Positions 4,398-26,236 of a stretch of DNA of 64,000 nucleotides are shown piece after piece. Each line of letters starts with the position of its first letter. Positions within the stretch are counted from its first letter, which is position 1. The notes beneath the pieces were generated by a model that worked only from the letters and a program-made list of their open reading frames with translations, ran no database searches and was not told the origin of the DNA. The DNA comes from an uncultured bacterium (lineage in GTDB: Bacteria; Patescibacteriota; Minisyncoccia; UBA6257; 2-01-FULL-56-20): assembly GCA_963707865.1 (NCBI GenBank), contig OY970175.1, forward strand, positions 396,305-460,304, read 5' to 3'. The position numbers were made by a program, and so were the translations under genes.

Positions 4398-5984
4398 TTA
4401 AGGGCTCGTCACGGGAACGAAGGTTTCAGTGAAAGCACAGTTCACAACGGAGCTCGTGGGTACGCCATCGCTGCTGTGGCAAAAACCGTTATTGAGTGGA
4501 GTGTAGTTCGCGAGCGGAGAGATGTTTACGCCATAGACCATGTTTGGGACAATGAACACCTGCGTGCCTGACGCATTTCCGGGGAACGAGGAAATGCTCG
4601 GATTGCTCCCGATGATCGTCACTGTAAAATTGGAAGGTGATGCCGTCCCGCCCTGCGAGTTGTCAACCGCCACCGAAACGTTCAAGATGCTTGTATTGTT
4701 GGTTGGCATAACGAGAGCGGGAACCGATTGATTGCTTGATGCGGGCGAGTTCAAAAATGATTCAGCAACATCCGATGGCGTCGCAAAGGAAATTCCCGTT
4801 ACATTAATATCCAGTCCCAAGGTATCGGCCAATTCATTGATACCAACGACGTTTCCGTATTGATCCACGAGCGGCCCGCCGCTGTCTCCCGGGTTTATTA
4901 GCGCCGAGGTTTGCAACAATTCTCCAAGCTCTGAAAATCCCGCAACGGTCCTTCGGGCGGTTACAATCCCCGCCTCGACCTCAAGCGTCTGGTCGGTATC
5001 GCAGGTTCTGGGAAACCCGAAAGAAACGACGCTTGCGCCGAGCGGCAAACTTGCATCGCTTGAATTTCCGAAAGAAACTACCGGCAATCCGCCTCTCGCA
5101 ACTTGCAAAAGCGCCAAATCCCTGGTCGGATCTTCCTGCTGGATAGTGGCCGGGACCACCATGCCATCGTTGAAATAGACGTTGATGCTGCCCGCTCCGG
5201 TTATCACGTGGTCGTCCGTCAGAATGCCTCCGCCGCCTTGGACAACCATGCCGCTGCCGCACCCAAAATCAGTGCGAATCAAGACGACCGAGGGAGAAAG
5301 CTTCGCCACGATTTGCGCCGTTGTCAGGACTGTACCTGATTGGGAAGTCGTAGGAGAGCCGGGTCGTATCGTTATCGCCCCGGGGAACGTGAATTGACCG
5401 CCGTCAGGATTTTTCACGGTGACATCGTAAAGACCCGGGTTGAATCCTGACGGATATTGAGCCGAAATCAACGTTGGGGTAATGGAGCCCATTATTTGAA
5501 GGCCGGTATTTCCCAGCGTCACCTCCGCGTCACTTTCAAAGCCGGAACCGTTAATGGAGATGGTATTCTGATAACCTGCAATCATAATCGTCGGGTTTAC
5601 GAAAGTTATGACGGGAGCGTTGCTCGAGGCGTTTTGGAGCGCCGTCACTTGCTTTTGAAGCGTCGTTATTTGGGTGGCGGCGCCGGCAGAACTCTTTTTT
5701 GAGGATTGGACTGGCGCCGATTTTAACTGTTGTATTTCTGCTTCAAGCTCGTTGATACGCACATCAACCGTATCGCTTGCAGTTGTCGTGGCTGATTGAG
5801 CGGACGATGAGGATTGTATAATAAGAGATTGCTCAAATTGGTTTGCTTTTGCCTGAACCGCTGCGTTGATTTGGTTTTGTTCATAGCTCCGCAACGCGAT
5901 GACGCCACGATAACCACCATAACTAGTGGATAGGACTAGGAAAGTAATGATGACGACTTTATAGCTTTGCCAGAATGCGTTCAT
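4398..5984 (-). CDS. secreted trypsin-like (S1/HtrA-family) serine protease with N-terminal TM/coiled-coil and IPT/TIG-like domain
   Basis: It carries the GDSGGP active-site motif (LINPGDSGGPLVDQYGNVVGI). An Ig-like beta-rich segment and an N-terminal hydrophobic helix are also present. Confidence 0.65.
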   Translation of the reverse strand: MNAFWQSYKVVIITFLVLSTSYGGYRGVIALRSYEQNQINAAVQAKANQFEQSLIIQSSSSAQSATTTASDTVDVRINELEAEIQQLKSAPVQSSKKSSAGAATQITTLQKQVTALQNASSNAPVITFVNPTIMIAGYQNTISINGSGFESDAEVTLGNTGLQIMGSITPTLISAQYPSGFNPGLYDVTVKNPDGGQFTFPGAITIRPGSPTTSQSGTVLTTAQIVAKLSPSVVLIRTDFGCGSGMVVQGGGGILTDDHVITGAGSINVYFNDGMVVPATIQQEDPTRDLALLQVARGGLPVVSFGNSSDASLPLGASVVSFGFPRTCDTDQTLEVEAGIVTARRTVAGFSELGELLQTSALINPGDSGGPLVDQYGNVVGINELADTLGLDINVTGISFATPSDVAESFLNSPASSNQSVPALVMPTNNTSILNVSVAVDNSQGGTASPSNFTVTIIGSNPSISSFPGNASGTQVFIVPNMVYGVNISPLANYTPLNNGFCHSSDGVPTSSVVNCAFTETFVPVTSP

Positions 5985-17482: not shown

Positions 17483-18088
17483 CTATCCGGAAGATATACA
17501 CAATTTATCCGAAACTCGTTTCAAAAGTTTTTGATAGTATGCTTTGTTTTTTGAACCGGTGCGTACCTTGATCGCTTTCATACCAACTTTCTTTGCCTCT
17601 TTCAATGCTTCGTCTGAATCTTCAACAAGAAGCGCGCGATCCCCGTATTTCTCATAAAAAAACTTTATGTCTTCATGCTTTCCCCGACTCCTGGTGAAAA
17701 TGATGCGCTTGAAAAATGGCTTCAACTTGGATTGATCCAATTTTAAAAGCTGGTGCCCGCGGTGGCCGTGGGTAAAAAGAATAAGCTCGCAACTTTCCGA
17801 CAAGCGCCGAAGAAACATTTCAACGCCGGGAAAATTATATTTCCTCGGCACAAGATAAAAAGCATCTGCCTTCGTGATAGCCTCCATCCTCTGCTTCGGA
17901 TCGGTGATCAAATATTCAAAATATTTTTGGGGAGCGATCCCCTTTCGGCTCATAACCGCATATATTCGTTTCGCCATCGTCCGGGAAACACCGAACTCTT
18001 GGGCGAGTCCGAGACGCCCAGCCTTTATCTTGTCGGTGTCAATCAGAACGCGATCAAAGTCAAAAAGTATGATTTTCCGCTTTTTCAT
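17483..18088 (-). CDS. HAD-superfamily hydrolase
   Basis: It has the motif I sequence ILFDFDRVLIDTD. Confidence 0.55.
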   Translation of the reverse strand: MKKRKIILFDFDRVLIDTDKIKAGRLGLAQEFGVSRTMAKRIYAVMSRKGIAPQKYFEYLITDPKQRMEAITKADAFYLVPRKYNFPGVEMFLRRLSESCELILFTHGHRGHQLLKLDQSKLKPFFKRIIFTRSRGKHEDIKFFYEKYGDRALLVEDSDEALKEAKKVGMKAIKVRTGSKNKAYYQKLLKRVSDKLCISSG

Positions 18089-19287: not shown

Positions 19288-21015
19288 TCACTTACTCGCG
19301 CCCTGAAGAGTTTTCAATTGCGCCTGGAGTGCTTGTAATTGTGCCTCCAACTGCTGCAGCGTGGCTGCGGCCGCGCTTGTGCTCGCGGTGTTTGTGGATT
19401 GTCCTCCGCCATACAATGCGTTCAGTGCAATCCTTGTTTTCGCGCCCACCATGCCCCATCCAGTCACCGCAGGACTTCCCGAACACACGATATTCTGATC
19501 GCACTGGAACTGCTGGACCGCTCTCTGCGTCAATGTCCCAAAGAAACCGCTCGCGTAGCCGGAATCAAGATACCCTTTCTGGATCAAAAACGTCTGTAAA
19601 TTTTTAACGTCGCCGCTCCGAAGGCCGAGGGACAATGTTGTTGTAAACGTTGCCGATACCGATGCCGTGGGTACCGATATCACAGGTACTGGTGTTGCAG
19701 ATACCGACGTCACTGAAGAGGAAACGACGGGTGCGGAAGATGCGGCCTGGGCCGCCACCGTGGGCGCGGTCACACTTGTGGTTACGCTCGTGGTTGCTGC
19801 AACCAACTGCGGCTTCACAGGCGACGTCTGAATGCCATACTGCAATGCTTGCGCGGAGACATTACCCGCCGCGTCGTAAGCGTCAACGGCATAGTTATAG
19901 TTTGTGAGAGAAGCAAGACCCGTATCCGCATACGAGGGAGAATTCGCAATCGCAATCTGCGCCCCGTTCCGATAGACGTGGTATCCCACAACGCCCACGT
20001 TATCGTACGAAAGTGACCAAGCAAGATCTATCTCTGACATAGACACTGGTTTCGCAGAGAGATTAAAGGGTGCGCTGGGCGCCGACGTATCCGGCGGAAG
20101 CGTGGTCCCCTGCACCGGATAGCTCTCGCCGGAAAAATTCCCTGCAGCATCGTAGGCGACCACATTGTAAAGATAACTCGTAGCGGCGGCGAGGTTCGTG
20201 TTTTTATATGTCGTTGGCGTGGAAGAAACGTTTGCAACCTGCGTCCCGTTCCGATACACGTAATAGCCCGCTACTCCCACGTTGTCGGAAGAAGCCTGCC
20301 ATGTGACGTCAATCTCACTTGATGATTTAGCGGTCACGAAAAGCGAGGACGGCACGGAGGGCGGAGTGATATCTGAAATTGTTGTCGCGTTCACCTGGCT
20401 GGAATAGGAAACATTCCCTGCCGCATCATACGCTGCAACCTTATAGGTGTAGGTGAATCCCGGCGAGAGGCCGGTGTCGGTATACGTAGTTGCGGTAAAC
20501 GGGTTTGCGATGCCGGGAATTCGGTTACCGTTGCGGTAGATATAATACCCTATGAGGGCGACATTATCAGTGGAAGTATTCCAAGAAAGCACTACCGATG
20601 AGGTGGCCGGCACAACCGAAATCCACGTGGGAGAGGAAGGAGGGGTGATGTCTTTCATGACCGAAACGGGGGAAGACGGAACAGAAAGCGAAGAGACGTT
20701 TCCTGCGGCATCGTATGCAGCGACAGTATACGAATATACCGCCCCGGGATTAACTGTGTCCGTGTAACTTGTGCTTTGGATATTTGCGACCAAGGTTCCG
20801 TTGCGATAGAGATAATATCCGGCGACGCCGACGTCATCGGTAGAAGCACTCCACGAAACGCTTATCTGGTCATATTTTGATAAAGAGACCGAAACTCCGG
20901 TAGGCGCGGAAGGCGGGGCCGTGCCTGCAGACTGGGCACGAGCAACGCCGGTCATGATAAAAAGACCCAAGAGAAAAGGGATTATTAGATACTTCCCTCT
21001 TTCCATTTTCATCAT
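19288..21015 (-). CDS. secreted protein with ~5 fibronectin type III-like repeats and C-terminal peptidoglycan-binding (PG_binding_1-like) domain
   Basis: It has a signal peptide and repeated units of the form PSAPT...W...S.DNVGV.GY.VYRNG. The C-terminus contains LQTFLIQKGYLDSGYASGFFGTLTQRAVQQFQ. Confidence 0.6.
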   Translation of the reverse strand: MMKMERGKYLIIPFLLGLFIMTGVARAQSAGTAPPSAPTGVSVSLSKYDQISVSWSASTDDVGVAGYYLYRNGTLVANIQSTSYTDTVNPGAVYSYTVAAYDAAGNVSSLSVPSSPVSVMKDITPPSSPTWISVVPATSSVVLSWNTSTDNVALIGYYIYRNGNRIPGIANPFTATTYTDTGLSPGFTYTYKVAAYDAAGNVSYSSQVNATTISDITPPSVPSSLFVTAKSSSEIDVTWQASSDNVGVAGYYVYRNGTQVANVSSTPTTYKNTNLAAATSYLYNVVAYDAAGNFSGESYPVQGTTLPPDTSAPSAPFNLSAKPVSMSEIDLAWSLSYDNVGVVGYHVYRNGAQIAIANSPSYADTGLASLTNYNYAVDAYDAAGNVSAQALQYGIQTSPVKPQLVAATTSVTTSVTAPTVAAQAASSAPVVSSSVTSVSATPVPVISVPTASVSATFTTTLSLGLRSGDVKNLQTFLIQKGYLDSGYASGFFGTLTQRAVQQFQCDQNIVCSGSPAVTGWGMVGAKTRIALNALYGGGQSTNTASTSAAAATLQQLEAQLQALQAQLKTLQGASK

Positions 21016-21308: not shown

Positions 21309-21383
21309 GGGAACTATTTTAGCCGATTCGCGGAAAATTGGCAAATCGCGCCGCACGCGCCGGCGCCGCTTTGAACCATTTTG

Positions 21384-21671
21384 AGCCGATGGTCGGATTT
21401 GAACCGACGACCTACTCCTTCATTGCTACCTCAACTTCGCAACGCTTATATGAGGATTAGACTGTATCTTGCGCATACCACTCTCGCGGCGCAGCGCCCC
21501 TTGCCAGTCGTTCGGGCGGGAAAAATAATTTTGCTCTCGCCACGGTCTTGGCCCTTGCTCCACGCATTGGCCTTTAACCGTAATTCGGGATTCGCAGGCA
21601 GGTTTCCCTACCCGTGGGCATGACCCCTTCGGTCCACCATGGAGTTGCTCTACCAGCTGAGCTACATCGGC
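21384..21671 (-). tRNA. tRNA-Thr (anticodon GGU) interrupted by a 215-nt group I intron in the anticodon loop
   Basis: The 5' half (GCCGATGTAGCTCAGCTGGTAGAGCAACTCCATGGT) and the 3' half (AAGGAGTAGGTCGTCGGTTCAAATCCGACCATCGGCT) together form a perfect cloverleaf once nucleotides 21421..21635 are removed. Confidence 0.6.
21421..21635 (-). ncRNA. group I intron (small, Azoarcus-like size) between tRNA positions 36 and 37
   Basis: The 5' exon ends in U and the intron ends in G. Intron nucleotides 12-17 (GUCAUG) can pair with the 5' exon end CAUGGU to form P1 with a U-G pair at the splice site. A GGGAAACC segment is also present. Confidence 0.5.
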
Positions 21672-22267
21672 ATTTTCTCTTTTGAAACCAAATCAACCAA
21701 GAGATCTCGCAGCTTTTTATTGTGATACATCACGGTCATAACGCCATATTGGCTCTTTTTCCTGTAAGTGCCTATGGAACCTGATTTTGTGATGATTGGT
21801 TTGTTGATTTGGTCTTTCTCTATATTAAGTTTTTTAACCCAAAAGTCCAGAGCTTCGCCTGGGTCGATATCATTAAATAGTTGCAAGCCGAATTTTAAAT
21901 CCTCCTTACGAATACCGAATATTTTCAGAAGGAATTTGATGAATATTTCAATGAGGGCTGGATCGGTATTGCCGAGTCGGACAGAAGAATGGCTTGCTTT
22001 TGTCCCCTCTCCCCAATAAAGACCAATACCCAGTCCGAACAACTTCGCCTCGTCCGGGGTCTTTGGTTCATTAAAATGGAACGGGTCGCCGTTAGGATTT
22101 TTCTTGACATAAGTTGCATCGCTGTGAGTCCGTCGAGGAATCTGATATTTTTCCATCCAATACGAGATTGTATGCAAAGAGCAACGCAAAATAGTAGCAA
22201 TATCTTGCATTGATTTTTTCTCTTCTTTATAAAGTTTGATCAAAATGAGCTTCTTAAGCACACCCAA
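21662..22267 (-). CDS. HTH + LAGLIDADG-like (GLYWGEG) putative homing endonuclease, abutting the intron-containing tRNA
   Basis: It has an N-terminal HTH (MQDIATILRCSLHTISYW) and a single LAGLIDADG-like box (FGLGIGLYWGEGTK). Its 3' end overlaps the tRNA 5' end by 10 nt. Confidence 0.35.
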   Translation of the reverse strand: MGVLKKLILIKLYKEEKKSMQDIATILRCSLHTISYWMEKYQIPRRTHSDATYVKKNPNGDPFHFNEPKTPDEAKLFGLGIGLYWGEGTKASHSSVRLGNTDPALIEIFIKFLLKIFGIRKEDLKFGLQLFNDIDPGEALDFWVKKLNIEKDQINKPIITKSGSIGTYRKKSQYGVMTVMYHNKKLRDLLVDLVSKEKMPM

Positions 22268-22305: not shown

Positions 22306-22734
22306 ATGGGGTATAATAACGCTATGGAACTCCAGGTCGGCGTGAAAGCGCTTCTCAAAAATAAGGACGGCAAATATCTCCTTGTGCGGCGTTCGCCCAA
22401 GAAGTATCCCGAAGTCGGTGCAAAGTGGGACATCGTCGGCGGAAGGATCAATCCCGGTGCGTCGCTTCTTGATAACCTAAAAAGGGAAATTAAAGAAGAA
22501 ACGGATCTGGATCTCGCGGAAACCCCGCGACTCATAGCAGCCCAGGACATTCTACGACCTCCCGAGAAGCATATCGTGAGGTTGACTTACCTCGGGACCA
22601 TTAACGGGCAACCAAAACTTGACGATGAAAACCTGGAGTATCGCTGGTTCACGATGAACGAAATAAAGGCGCTGGACGATTTGGATTCCTACGTCAAAAA
22701 ACTGGTCAACGACGGCGAGCTTCCACTTACTTGA
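22306..22734 (+). CDS. NUDIX hydrolase
   Basis: It contains the Nudix box GGRINPGASLLDNLKREIKEETD. Confidence 0.7.
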   Translation: MGYNNAMELQVGVKALLKNKDGKYLLVRRSPKKYPEVGAKWDIVGGRINPGASLLDNLKREIKEETDLDLAETPRLIAAQDILRPPEKHIVRLTYLGTINGQPKLDDENLEYRWFTMNEIKALDDLDSYVKKLVNDGELPLT

Positions 22735-25579
22735 TTGTGATCGTTGCGAGCAGGAATGGAGTAGTGCCTAGCACTGGATCAATCGTAATCCATAACCCGT
22801 ACTTGTTTCCGATCTTTCCATTCTTGAAGGCGGACGTCAACTTGGTCGAGAGATTGTAGATGTATTGCTGACCCGTTGAATCAAAGCGGAACTGATTCAG
22901 AGTATTCGAGCCACCGCTAGATACTGCGGCGGCGGCGGTAATTCCACAGAATGTACCAGTGTCACCGGCACAAACATAAAGTTTTGCCGTCCAACCAGAA
23001 ATCGTTGAAGGGATTTTGACCGGAATAGTACTGCCGTTCTGGAAGTCCTTGTTTGAGATGGTGAGAGGAGGCTGTGCGGCAATAATCACGTCATTAACGG
23101 TCCCCGATTGGTTATTGTAGTTGCCAGTCGAACTTATAAACGTCCAAGGATCAACATACGCGCCACCCGCTGTGTGTGTAGTACCAGACAGGTTAAGGGT
23201 ATTCTGAGGGCTACCACCGACACCGATACACGAGCCGGTTGCGGTGTGAGACGTACCGTTATAAAGCACAGCGTAGCCGGTGACATGGCAGGTCGCATCG
23301 GCTTTCTTGATGTTGTCGTCAACCTTGCCGTTCGCGTCGTTATAGTTTCCTGTGACATCAGTGAATGTCCAGGCGTCGCCGGTATAGGTACCAGCATTGG
23401 TGTGAGTTGTACCGCTTAAATCAAGACCGGGTAATGCTTCACCCTTAACTCCATTTGCCGAACCATCTGCAGTGTGGGAATTGCCATCATAAGTCACATC
23501 GTAAGGAGTGACCACGATCGTCGCATCGGCTTTGCTGATATCAATGGCCACATTTCCACTGTCATCATTGTAGTTTCCGGTAACGTCTGTAAATGTCCAG
23601 TTGGCAGTCCCGCCGGGAACATCGGTGAAGGAGTCTCCGAGAACTAGGCCCGCGAGTGGTTCGCCTTTGGCGCCAGTGCAGGAGCCACTTGCTCCGTGAG
23701 CATCACCGTCATAAGTGCCGCTGTAGCCGGTGACGGTGCATGTTGCATCTGCTTTGGTGATTACAATAGATACATCGCCGCTAGCGTCGTTGTAGTTCGT
23801 TCCACCAGTAAAGGTCCAGTGAGCCGTGCCGCCAGGAACATCGGTGAAAGTAGATCCTAGATTAAGCGAACCGCTAAGGTCTTCGCCTTTTACCCCAGTT
23901 GCAGCATCAGAAGCACCGTGCGCATTGCCATCGTAGACGCCGGTGTAGCCAGTAATGTTGATCGTCGCATCGGCTTTGCTGATATCAATGGCTACACTTC
24001 CACTGTCATCATCGTAGTTTCCAGTAACGTCCGTGAATGTCCAATCCGCTGTCCCGCCGGGAACATTAGTGAAGGTTGCACCGAGGTCAAGGCCTTCGAG
24101 TGTTTCGTCTTTGGCGCCGATGCAGGAGCCTGTTGCACCATGCGGGTCACCATCATAGGTGCCGGTGTAGCCGGTGATTGTGCAGGTCGGGGCAGCCTTT
24201 GTTATGGTAATTGTTGTGCTATCACTGCTTCCATTTTGGTCGTTGTAGTTCGTCCCGCCAGAGAAAGTCCAGTGAGCAGTGCCACCGGGTACGTTCATAA
24301 AGCTGGAACCGAGGTCCACCGAAGCGCTGAGATCCGCGCCACCAACACCAAAACAGTTGCCGCTCGCGCCATGCGCATTGCCGTCATAAGCACCAGCGTA
24401 GCCAGTGATTGAAGAACAGTCTGCGGTAGCTTTGTTTATGGTGATAGAAACCGGGTCGCTCGTGGCTTGGTTGTAATTATCGTCAGCCGCTTTAGTTACG
24501 GTGATGGAACAAGTCCCCGTGCCGCTCGTGATGGTCACTGCGCCACTATTCGTGTCCACGCTGCATGCAGTGGACGCGCCCGCACTAAAGGTAACCGTAC
24601 CCGTCCCGCTGCCGCCCGACTTTCCCGCAGCGATACCTGCCTGCCCGTATGTAGCGCTTGCTGGTAGGTCGGTGGTCAATGTTGCTTGATCGGCTTTCTG
24701 TGCCGTTGTATTTTCTGTAACTTCAGGAGCGGGATTATAGCTTCCATTTCCCGCTTGGTTATAGTGAACCGTGCAAGTGCCCGTACCGCTCGTCATTGTG
24801 ATCGTGGCCGAACCGCTGCCGCTGCCGGAACAGACACCGCTCGTTGTAATAGCAACGGTCAAGCCAGAATCCGCAGTTGCCGCGACTGGAAATGTGGTGT
24901 TGTAAACCGCACTTGCCGGTGCGTGCGTAGTGACCGTGATTGTCTGATTCGCCTTCGCAATCAAATTAAACGTGGCTGTCTCAATGACAGTTTTGTTTCC
25001 CGTTAGGCCAGAAGGAGAGCAAGTTCCTGTCCCACTACAATCTCCGCCGCTCCAACCAACAAAACTTGAACCCCCATCCGCCGCAGCGGTTAAGGTTACA
25101 GAAGGGTTATTACTGTTGAATGTTTGAGTGCATGATCCAGACGTTGCCCCCGCTGCAACTATACAGTCGATGGTGGTGCCGGTGCCTGTTATGGCGCCAT
25201 TACCAGTGCCCGCTCCGTTCACTTGTAAGACAGGATGGTTTGCGTCGGTGAAGTTGCCACTCTGCGTCACGCCCGAGGTCTCGCCGGTCACAGTGTAGGG
25301 ATAGGAACCACCCGCTGTGTCATCGGTCGGGAGCGTGAACTGCCAGCTGAACGCTCCGCTCTCGTCAACAGTGGTTTCGCCCGTCACCGCGCCGTACGGC
25401 GCTTGGATGTTTATATCAACTGTTTCTCCCGCCACGTATCCGGCACCATCGCTATTGTTACCGGAAATAACGACCGTACTGCCGGGGCTGTAATCCGCCT
25501 GGTTTGTGGAAACGTATGCCAGAGCCGGCATCGTACCCGCGACCAACAAAACAAGGGAAACAATTAATGTTTTTTTCAT
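22727..25579 (-). CDS. large secreted adhesin-like protein with ~6 tandem MBG/Ig-like repeats
   Basis: It has a signal peptide and repeated ~90-aa units of the form TGYTGTYDG.aHGA.G...G.....L.LG.tFTnVPGGTA.WTFT....NYND.sG.V.I.I.KA. Confidence 0.6.
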   Translation of the reverse strand: MKKTLIVSLVLLVAGTMPALAYVSTNQADYSPGSTVVISGNNSDGAGYVAGETVDINIQAPYGAVTGETTVDESGAFSWQFTLPTDDTAGGSYPYTVTGETSGVTQSGNFTDANHPVLQVNGAGTGNGAITGTGTTIDCIVAAGATSGSCTQTFNSNNPSVTLTAAADGGSSFVGWSGGDCSGTGTCSPSGLTGNKTVIETATFNLIAKANQTITVTTHAPASAVYNTTFPVAATADSGLTVAITTSGVCSGSGSGSATITMTSGTGTCTVHYNQAGNGSYNPAPEVTENTTAQKADQATLTTDLPASATYGQAGIAAGKSGGSGTGTVTFSAGASTACSVDTNSGAVTITSGTGTCSITVTKAADDNYNQATSDPVSITINKATADCSSITGYAGAYDGNAHGASGNCFGVGGADLSASVDLGSSFMNVPGGTAHWTFSGGTNYNDQNGSSDSTTITITKAAPTCTITGYTGTYDGDPHGATGSCIGAKDETLEGLDLGATFTNVPGGTADWTFTDVTGNYDDDSGSVAIDISKADATINITGYTGVYDGNAHGASDAATGVKGEDLSGSLNLGSTFTDVPGGTAHWTFTGGTNYNDASGDVSIVITKADATCTVTGYSGTYDGDAHGASGSCTGAKGEPLAGLVLGDSFTDVPGGTANWTFTDVTGNYNDDSGNVAIDISKADATIVVTPYDVTYDGNSHTADGSANGVKGEALPGLDLSGTTHTNAGTYTGDAWTFTDVTGNYNDANGKVDDNIKKADATCHVTGYAVLYNGTSHTATGSCIGVGGSPQNTLNLSGTTHTAGGAYVDPWTFISSTGNYNNQSGTVNDVIIAAQPPLTISNKDFQNGSTIPVKIPSTISGWTAKLYVCAGDTGTFCGITAAAAVSSGGSNTLNQFRFDSTGQQYIYNLSTKLTSAFKNGKIGNKYGLWITIDPVLGTTPFLLATITIK

Positions 25580-25669: not shown

Positions 25670-26236
25670 TTAACGATTATTCAAACCGATGAGCCCTTCC
25701 ACCGCTCGCGCAACATTCTCATTCCAATCGTGGCCGGCATCTACTTCAACAAGTTTGATGCCATTGTTCCTTATAATCTCCGCCGATCTTTCATCGCAAA
25801 AGTAGTGATCGTCTTTGCCCCTGATGACGACCAAATCCTTTTGGGGAATTTTTTGAATGATATCAAAAACATCAACCTTCAGTAGCGCTAAAATCTGCCG
25901 AAGCCCGTACGGCCAATTATTTATGGGAACCAATTTCCTTAATGGTATGCCCTCTCCAAAAAAGAATTTGATCCACTCCCAAAATAAAACCAAAAGGCTT
26001 CTTTTTTTGATAAGAGGATTCACAAAAATAAACTTGCCGTTTCGAATCGCGTCATAGTGGGAAAGGATAAAATTCACTCCCCCGCTGTGCCCGACATAAT
26101 ATCGCGCGGCCGGAATTTCTTTTATAGAACAGGATTTCAGCCAAATATCCAAGCCGTCGTAATTTCCATAGTTCTTTACCATCTGGAACGCTCCGGGAAA
26201 GATAAGGACTCTGGGCGTGATTGATGGTTTTCCCAT
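25670..26236 (-). CDS. alpha/beta-hydrolase fold protein
   Basis: It has a GHSGG nucleophile elbow. Confidence 0.5.
   Translation of the reverse strand: MGKPSITPRVLIFPGAFQMVKNYGNYDGLDIWLKSCSIKEIPAARYYVGHSGGVNFILSHYDAIRNGKFIFVNPLIKKRSLLVLFWEWIKFFFGEGIPLRKLVPINNWPYGLRQILALLKVDVFDIIQKIPQKDLVVIRGKDDHYFCDERSAEIIRNNGIKLVEVDAGHDWNENVARAVEGLIGLNNR

Follow-up and report, generated by a model that had tools for sequence, protein, structure and literature searches.

Genes encoding free-standing endonucleases are wedged among the tRNA genes of phages, examples being SegB of T4 (GIY-YIG) and the F-Tfl enzymes of T5 (HNH). LAGLIDADG homing endonucleases are built on an alpha-beta-beta-alpha-beta-beta-alpha core and cut DNA site-specifically at targets of 14-40 bp, producing 4-nt 3' overhangs. 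The LAGLIDADG scaffold is also known from the transcription factor WhiA, which contains two degenerate LAGLIDADG domains with the catalytic residues absent and a C-terminal helix-turn-helix (HTH). Free-standing endonuclease genes, intronless homing and collaborative homing are established concepts (PMC3984707), and collaborative or trans homing has been described for free-standing phage endonucleases paired with introns that lack an open reading frame (ORF), namely F-CphI at the psbA intron, MobE and I-TevIII (PMC3984707, PMC2790892, PMC6083498). The subject of this report is an ORF encoding an HTH and LAGLIDADG-like protein that overlaps the 5' end of an intron-containing tRNA-Thr(GGU) gene in a 64,000-nucleotide stretch of DNA from an uncultured Patescibacteria bacterium (contig OY970175.1, positions 396,305 to 460,304 of the forward strand; assembly GCA_963707865.1), hereafter the window, to which coordinates refer unless a related locus is named. 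The reading favored here, to which we assign an even chance, is that the ORF belongs to a family of free-standing, LAGLIDADG-derived, homing-endonuclease-like genes that target tRNA genes, with the neighboring intron as a linked partner or passenger.

The window ORF differs from the genes for F-CphI, MobE and I-TevIII, which are HNH or Endo VII-like enzymes of phages, in that it encodes a LAGLIDADG-like protein in a cellular genome, overlaps the exon, and is placed with equal regularity beside tRNA genes that have no intron. As with SegB and the F-Tfl enzymes, distant relatives of the ORF on IMG/VR contigs are located among tRNA genes. The protein shares with WhiA the pairing of a LAGLIDADG scaffold with an HTH, in a bacterial protein that is not necessarily a nuclease. 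Unlike WhiA, it has a single LAGLIDADG-type domain, an N-terminal HTH and a conserved glutamate (Glu87), and none of the WhiA models of Pfam or NCBIfam matched it; identity as a WhiA-type regulator was rejected on these grounds. Literature searches found no LAGLIDADG family with such a domain architecture or with a stop codon inside a tRNA gene, and no description of the family itself.

The ORF listing places a 201-residue ORF on the minus strand at 21662..22267, starting with TTG. The true start is uncertain, as homologues are mostly ~194 residues long, and the public gene call (P0001) begins at Met20 to give 182 residues. The 3' end reads ATG CCG ATG TAG, encoding Pro-Met before the stop and terminating at 21662. 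Since G21671 is nucleotide 1 of the tRNA, the overlap is exactly 10 nt (21662..21671) and the TAG stop codon occupies nucleotides 8-10 of tRNA-Thr(GGU). The coordinates of the ORF and its end 10 nt inside the 5' exon, as reported in an earlier note made from the sequence of the window, are exact. When introns were allowed, ARAGORN located the tRNA at 21383-21671 on the minus strand, with a 5' exon of nucleotides 1-36 (21636..21671), a 215-nt intron between positions 36 and 37 (21421..21635) and a 3' exon of nucleotides 37-73 (21384..21420) with the CCA not encoded. The same tRNA was missed by ARAGORN at default settings and by Rfam. Comparison with the nearest relative (locus L001) gave a ratio of nonsynonymous to synonymous substitution rates (dN/dS) of 0.07, with synonymous sites saturated. 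This value, 27 invariant columns across 57 sequences of the close family and a confident AlphaFold2 model indicate a real and constrained protein, and the window ORF is a real gene under purifying selection. Scans for promoters and terminators between the ORF and the tRNA, and upstream of the ORF, revealed nothing convincing.

The protein is comprised of an N-terminal HTH region, a conserved linker and a C-terminal alpha/beta domain. AlphaFold2 models of the whole protein and of the isolated C-terminal domain had mean predicted local distance difference test scores of 88.6 and 87.5, respectively. The N-terminal HTH recognized in the earlier note was confirmed by a match of Pfam HTH_23 to residues 4-42 (22142..22258, minus strand; E 2.9e-5), a family matched also by 47 of the 57 homologues. 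The helical bundle continues to approximately residue 56, with helices predicted at residues 6-15, 20-27, 31-40 and 48-56. PHROG families matched by the HTH region carry an HNH endonuclease annotation. Matches of the ORF to NCBIfam Sta1 and to IS630 transposases were weak, the transposase matches being confined to the HTH, and were dismissed. Several proteins of 350-820 residues (P0134, P0135, P0143, P0154, P0160 and others) contain 5-14 tandem copies of the ~50-residue HTH module of the ORF. The linker motif NPxGDPF (residues 57-63; 22079..22099, minus strand) is conserved in the 57 sequences, with G60, P62 and F63 invariant and N57, P58 and D61 at least 90% conserved. The C-terminal domain (residues 66-197; 21677..22072, minus strand), delimited by the AlphaFold2 domain model and the profile match to I-DmoI described below, is predicted to proceed as helix, short hairpin, helix, strand, helix with basic loop, strand and helix. 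The predicted elements are the motif helix (71-86), a strand (95-100), a helix (103-117), a strand (125-130), a helix (136-147), a low-confidence basic loop (GTYRKKS), a strand (176-182) and a final helix (184-196).

Conservation and alignment to I-DmoI identified the LAGLIDADG-type motif FGLGIGLYWGEGTK at residues 77-90 (21998..22039, minus strand), with Glu87 as the candidate catalytic residue. The motif FGLGIGLYWGEG is a helix rich in small residues that has an acidic residue and then glycine at its end, and residues G78, G80, G82, W85, G86, E87 and G88 are invariant in all 57 homologues. A broad family profile, comprised of 45 diverse members and including relatives from viral contigs, matched I-DmoI as the sole hit among 177,635 distinct PDB sequences (E 1.3e-4). 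The profile segment GLYWGEGsK...vrlaNsDP..l..fl.fL..icgv aligned to residues 109-149 of I-DmoI, the region of its second LAGLIDADG motif, and the alignment covers the motif helix, the hairpin and the next helix with the acidic residue in register. The family motif falls on GLYVAEGDK of I-DmoI, a stretch that contains the catalytic Glu117. Alignment of the family to I-DmoI with hhalign gave an E-value of 2.9e-5 and a probability of 74%. Neither phmmer with the single protein nor hmmsearch with a profile of the close family retrieved a LAGLIDADG entry from the PDB. LAGLIDADG_3 was the only non-HTH Pfam family to recur when the homologues were scanned singly, appearing in 15 of 57 (best E 0.012), and the best of the distant viral-contig relatives reached 20.1 bits (E 7.7e-4) with this family. 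The BFVD structures that superposed best were intein or DOD endonuclease proteins, with E-values that were non-significant. On these sequence comparisons a LAGLIDADG-type origin is accepted for at least the first half of the C-terminal domain, and the single LAGLIDADG-like box proposed in the earlier note appears to be correct.

The resemblance to I-DmoI and to LAGLIDADG_3 enzymes extends to a motif helix that ends in Glu-Gly (GLYWGEG here and GLYVAEG in I-DmoI), after which I-DmoI and the family have a short hairpin with Asn at its end and an amphipathic helix that closes with ...L..GI/V. The differences from I-DmoI are one domain in place of two, the added N-terminal HTH, a very short first hairpin and the ~40 residues, a helix and basic loop, between the last two strands; moreover, the gene is free-standing beside a tRNA gene, whereas that of I-DmoI lies inside an rRNA intron. 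By eye, the tail of the domain, YGVMTVMYHNKKLRDLL, resembles HGVYVLNISLRDRIKF of I-DmoI, a likeness according to which the ~40 residues between the last two strands would be an insertion. The LAGLIDADG-type domain likely forms a homodimer packed through the Gly-rich motif helix, and Glu87 is a likely candidate for a metal-binding residue. The motif Glu is lost in ~10 of 65 representatives of clusters formed at 50% identity.

The family is large, previously unnamed and distributed throughout the Patescibacteria. It comprises >1,200 clusters at 90% identity, the named sources are all Patescibacteria, and a scan with a narrow pattern recovered members in 308 GTDB species. Public annotations are 'hypothetical' or 'HTH domain-containing' only. 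The gene that follows the ORF is tRNA-Thr(GGU) in 71 of 71 evaluable species-level loci, and the stop codon is always within 116 nt of it. As in the window, 48 of the 71 loci have the stop exactly 10 nt into the tRNA, and in 66 it falls between -90 and +18. The tRNA contains the intron in 42 ORF-bearing species-level loci and is without it in 24 (n = 66). The ORF lies between tRNA-Thr(UGU) or tRNA-Tyr and tRNA-Thr(GGU). The gap separating the upstream tRNA from tRNA-Thr(GGU) on the same strand is at least 638 nt when the ORF is present, mostly 640-750 nt, and is 1-150 nt in most loci that are devoid of it. In metagenomes the ORF was present in ~10 of the 100 loci sampled, and it is found as a presence/absence polymorphism at one fixed position. 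A search for pairs of close relatives that differ in ORF state returned only moderately related pairs.

Adjacency to tRNA genes is not confined to tRNA-Thr(GGU). A paralogue with an HTH and the motif ..YWCEG[AN]K..FTNSDP.. is located directly 5' of an intron-less tRNA-Trp(CCA) at L001:5196-5834, L024:5536-6201, L057:2800-3468 and L067:6210-6986, and the overlap with the tRNA is again 10 nt in L001 and L024. The genome of L001 holds both paralogues and the window holds the tRNA-Thr one only. Seven distant relatives (L081-L087), with 23-33% identity and the same architecture, are encoded on IMG/VR contigs of 100-497 kb; the six that were examined all sit within dense tRNA arrays, in either orientation with respect to the tRNAs. 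The 3' ends of the ORF and of a tRNA encoded on the other strand overlap by ~36-38 nt in L081 and L086. Divergent members with ~29% identity to the window ORF occur near, and not abutting, intron-containing tRNA-Thr(GGU) genes in L146 (540-1127, minus strand) and L199 (331-927, plus strand), and may be docked on other tRNAs. Thus, the genes of this family are found at the borders of tRNA genes, with the lineage of the window fused to the 5' end of tRNA-Thr(GGU). Given the intron-less tRNA-Thr genes, the tRNA-Trp paralogue and the tRNA arrays of viral contigs, the rule at the level of the family is adjacency to tRNA genes and not to introns.

Degenerate and truncated copies were found, consistent with a cycle of invasion and decay in which intact copies dominate. 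In addition to the variants without the motif Glu, the last 29 codons of the ORF (YRKKSEFGVLTLYYGNVKLKKVLMSLLPM) remain at L122:7770-7880, fused to an intron-containing tRNA-Thr(GGU) and directly downstream of a tyrosyl-tRNA synthetase-like gene. In five loci (L005:3290-3360; L023:4570-4720; L051, L062 and L068 at ~4575-4650) the start of the tRNA (~9-14 nt) is present twice. The ORF terminates in one copy, the intact tRNA begins 39-116 nt further on and small inserts lie between, the insert in L023 being a repeated palindromic unit. These duplicated tRNA starts may be traces of an insertion or repair event near tRNA position 10. Two copies of the tRNA-Thr(GGU) 5' exon are located 169 nt apart in L194 (minus strand, ~886-1290), the second with a normal intron after it and the first with unrelated sequence, suggesting that part of the exon was duplicated.

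According to the reading favored here, the protein would recognize DNA in or beside tRNA-Thr(GGU) alleles that lack the ORF, and the break would be repaired from the ORF-bearing copy with co-conversion of the ORF, that is, by intronless homing. The ORF-less group I intron 26 bp away would travel with the ORF as a tightly linked passenger or partner, a possible explanation for the co-occurrence of the two elements without mutual dependence. Several results weigh against this interpretation. None of Pfam LAGLIDADG_1, _2 and _3 reached its gathering score with the window ORF, the match of LAGLIDADG_3 (PF14528) to residues 81-119 scoring 12.9 bits (E 0.14) against a cut-off of 22.5. No LAGLIDADG structure was retrieved from the PDB by Foldseek, whether the query was the whole protein or the isolated domain. 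The top matches were OmpA-like and IspF folds with template modeling (TM) scores of 0.3-0.43, the best (0.43) being OmpA-like, and were too weak to be taken as homology. On the absence of a predicted LAGLIDADG fold, named in the earlier note as a refuting result, the structural comparisons point in two directions, with no such structure from the PDB and with intein or DOD endonucleases, at non-significant E-values, as the best superpositions in BFVD. The sequence similarity to I-DmoI spans ~45 residues in the first half of the domain only. With respect to evolutionary behavior, a recognizable, apparently intact ORF is present in 78 of 80 species-level loci, and the mean identity of the ORF protein (0.55) exceeds that of ribosomal protein L33 (0.48). 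ORF clusters obtained by the unweighted pair group method with arithmetic mean follow class labels of the candidate phyla radiation (CPR). The class-level congruence and the conservation suggest a long-lived, mostly vertical pattern, one that is expected less of an endonuclease gene that is purely selfish and is compatible with domestication. ORF identity is only weakly correlated with L33 identity (rho 0.36), a comparison of limited power as a test of horizontal transfer, as only the 56-residue L33 was shared widely enough. Finally, the favored reading does not account for how an ORF-bearing allele with an unchanged tRNA escapes cleavage by its own product.

A somewhat unlikely alternative is that the host has retained a domesticated LAGLIDADG protein as a sequence-specific DNA- or RNA-binding factor and not as a mobile nuclease. 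Candidate roles would be regulation of the operon of tRNA and ribosomal protein genes that starts at tRNA-Thr(GGU), or assistance in splicing or processing. The strong purifying selection with saturated synonymous sites, conservation above that of L33, congruence with taxonomy at the class level and nearly complete intactness of species-level copies are all in agreement with domestication, as are the fixed position of the gene on the tRNA strand with no spacer and no recognizable promoter between, the loss of Glu in some lineages that keep the remainder of the protein, and the precedent of WhiA as a regulator with LAGLIDADG and HTH domains. However, only a minority of related loci (~10 of 100) have the gene, which hence does not serve a core function; the close family shows no variation in the Glu and the Gly-rich helix; and the truncated remnant in L122 is at odds with retention by the host. 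The viral-contig relatives can lie opposite in strand to the neighboring tRNAs, indicating that co-transcription is not a property of the family. A maturase role in particular was rejected, since it fails at intron-less loci, where the ORF is equally fixed beside the tRNA.

The neighboring element is a compact, ORF-less group I intron that has been overlooked by Rfam. It belongs to a class of ORF-less introns of ~170-230 nt in tRNA-Thr(GGU) of Patescibacteria. Alignment of 68 homologous introns and folding with RNAalifold, with the P3 pseudoknot added manually, resolved the exon anticodon stem, P1, P2 (with a GNRA-type loop), P3, P4, P5, P6, P7 (GACUG/CAGUC), P8 and P9. P1 is formed by exon GGU and intron GCC only, and all 68 sequences have U.G at the 5' splice site. 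Paired cells amounted to 96.8% in the alignment compared with at most 46.8% when the partners were slid, compensatory changes were found in 33 of 51 pairs, the P3 pseudoknot covaries, and none of 500 shuffles reached the observed values. A terminal G was present in 70 of 72 extracted introns. The group I assignment is based on the covariation across the 68 homologues, the invariant U.G and the terminal G. Rfam RF00028 had no match in the window even at E <= 10, and it matched none of 13 related loci at gathering score. The intron is similar to those of Azoarcus tRNA-Ile, Agrobacterium tRNA-Arg, cyanobacterial tRNA-Leu and tRNA-fMet in its anticodon-loop site, small size, lack of an ORF, P1-P9 core, U.G at the 5' splice site, terminal G and retained exon anticodon stem; it differs from them in falling outside RF00028, in a P1 of only GGU/GCC and in its host, tRNA-Thr(GGU) of Patescibacteria. 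The reference list of PMC12641178 includes a 2025 preprint about group I introns of tRNA genes in Patescibacteria.

The ORF and the intron co-occur far above chance, although phylogeny confounds the test in that the ORF clusters track CPR class labels. Metagenomic loci were collected by scanning for tRNA D-arm and anticodon-arm sequence, a procedure unbiased with regard to the ORF, and those with at least 700 nt upstream were retained. Among tRNA-Thr(GGU) genes with the ACTCC stem, the ORF was present in 6 loci (plus 1 remnant) and absent from 10 where the intron was present, and was present in 1 and absent from 74 where the intron was absent; the resulting frequencies of 6/16 and 1/75 gave a Fisher p of 8e-5, uncorrected for phylogeny. 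Among ORF-bearing GTDB loci, 42 of 46 with an anticodon stem ending in TCC had the intron, as opposed to none of the 20 with a different stem. The distance of 26 bp between the end of the ORF and the intron would alone cause the two to be co-inherited and co-converted. The link is statistical and not obligatory, each element being found without the other. In L011 and L174 an intact ORF with the motif Glu retained adjoins an intron-less tRNA whose stem-loop is likewise ACTCC AT GGT AA GGAGT, and ORFs with an intact Glu stand beside intron-less tRNAs with other TCC stems in L014, L069 and L070. Conversely, at least 10 intron-containing loci are without the ORF. Of the ideas in the earlier note, the association of the ORF and the intron survives as an enrichment, but neither element depends on the other. 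The proposal that the ORF is the specific mobility factor of this intron is contradicted by the 24 of 66 species-level loci in which tRNA-Thr(GGU) has no intron and the ORF keeps its place, by the paralogue on intron-less tRNA-Trp, by the relatives in viral-contig tRNA arrays, by the ORF-less intron loci, and by the combination of an intact ORF with an intron-less identical stem-loop in L011 and L174.

The same data are pertinent to collaborative homing, which we consider unlikely at this locus. In this scheme the endonuclease would cut the anticodon stem-loop of intron-less tRNA-Thr(GGU) at the pseudo-palindrome ACTCC ATGGTAA GGAGT, a target suited to a homodimer, and the intron at 36/37 would split and thereby protect the site, so that both spread as a two-part unit. 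The short distance between the elements, the confinement of the intron to TCC stems among ORF-bearing loci and the metagenomic enrichment are consistent with such a scheme, the concept of which is documented in phages (PMC3984707). Furthermore, P1 of the intron requires only the GGU anticodon, and the restriction to TCC stems is thus not explained by pairing of the intron. On the other hand, the associations are phylogenetically confounded, and L011 and L174 argue against the intron as a required immunity, as do the intact ORFs beside the other intron-less TCC stems in L014, L069 and L070. The intron-containing loci without the ORF, the absence of an intron at the tRNA-Trp of the paralogue and the lack of an intron link for the viral-contig relatives also weigh against the scheme. 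An extended version is quite unlikely, in which the ORF would represent an ancient, selection-maintained LAGLIDADG lineage docked on the tRNA and would form a two-part mobile unit with the intron. The 5' cut of RNase P would remove the stop codon, such that tRNA processing gates the production of full-length protein and the stop-less messages become non-stop mRNAs.

It is very improbable that the protein has no LAGLIDADG ancestry, being instead an HTH protein with a novel alpha/beta domain, a convergent GLYWGEG box and a tRNA adjacency due to genome compaction. In favor of such a reading, no significant structural neighbor was found beyond the low TM scores of OmpA-like and IspF folds, Pfam scores were below threshold and the similarity is short. 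Against it, I-DmoI was the only significant match in the PDB, in an alignment that keeps the acidic residue in register; matches to LAGLIDADG_3 arise independently among close members and among distant ones; DOD or intein endonucleases give the best BFVD superpositions by geometry; and compaction leaves unexplained the tRNA adjacency in three independent contexts.

The segment of the window with tRNA-Thr, rpmG and tRNA-Trp is flanked by repeat-rich ORFs of 575 and 950 residues (19288-21015 and 22727-25579, both minus strand) that are rich in Thr, Ser and Gly and look like secreted or surface proteins. The 575-residue ORF lies between tRNA-Trp and an ORF that by eye appears to be rplJ, where secE, nusG, rplK and rplA are expected. 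Other ORFs of the window that abut tRNA genes are not paralogues of the ORF studied here; by eye, the product of that at 17483-18088 resembles a HAD-type hydrolase and that of 25670-26236 an alpha/beta hydrolase.

The tRNA-Thr(GGU) split by the intron is missed by standard tRNA and Rfam scans, and a genome can therefore seem to lack this tRNA. For a family annotated until now in the most general terms, the assignment supplies a fold family, a candidate catalytic residue in Glu87 and a strict genomic rule of location at the 5' edge of tRNA-Thr(GGU) or tRNA-Trp. To our knowledge, the sharing of targets by free-standing endonucleases and ORF-less introns has been studied so far only in phages. 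If the protein is an active endonuclease, the locus would offer a cellular system for investigating how free-standing endonuclease genes and ORF-less group I introns share a target, and the family would add LAGLIDADG scaffolds with an accessory HTH. Should the reading with RNase P gating and a two-part mobile unit be true, the locus would represent the first cellular, non-phage case of collaborative homing and a living intermediate toward introns that carry their own endonuclease.

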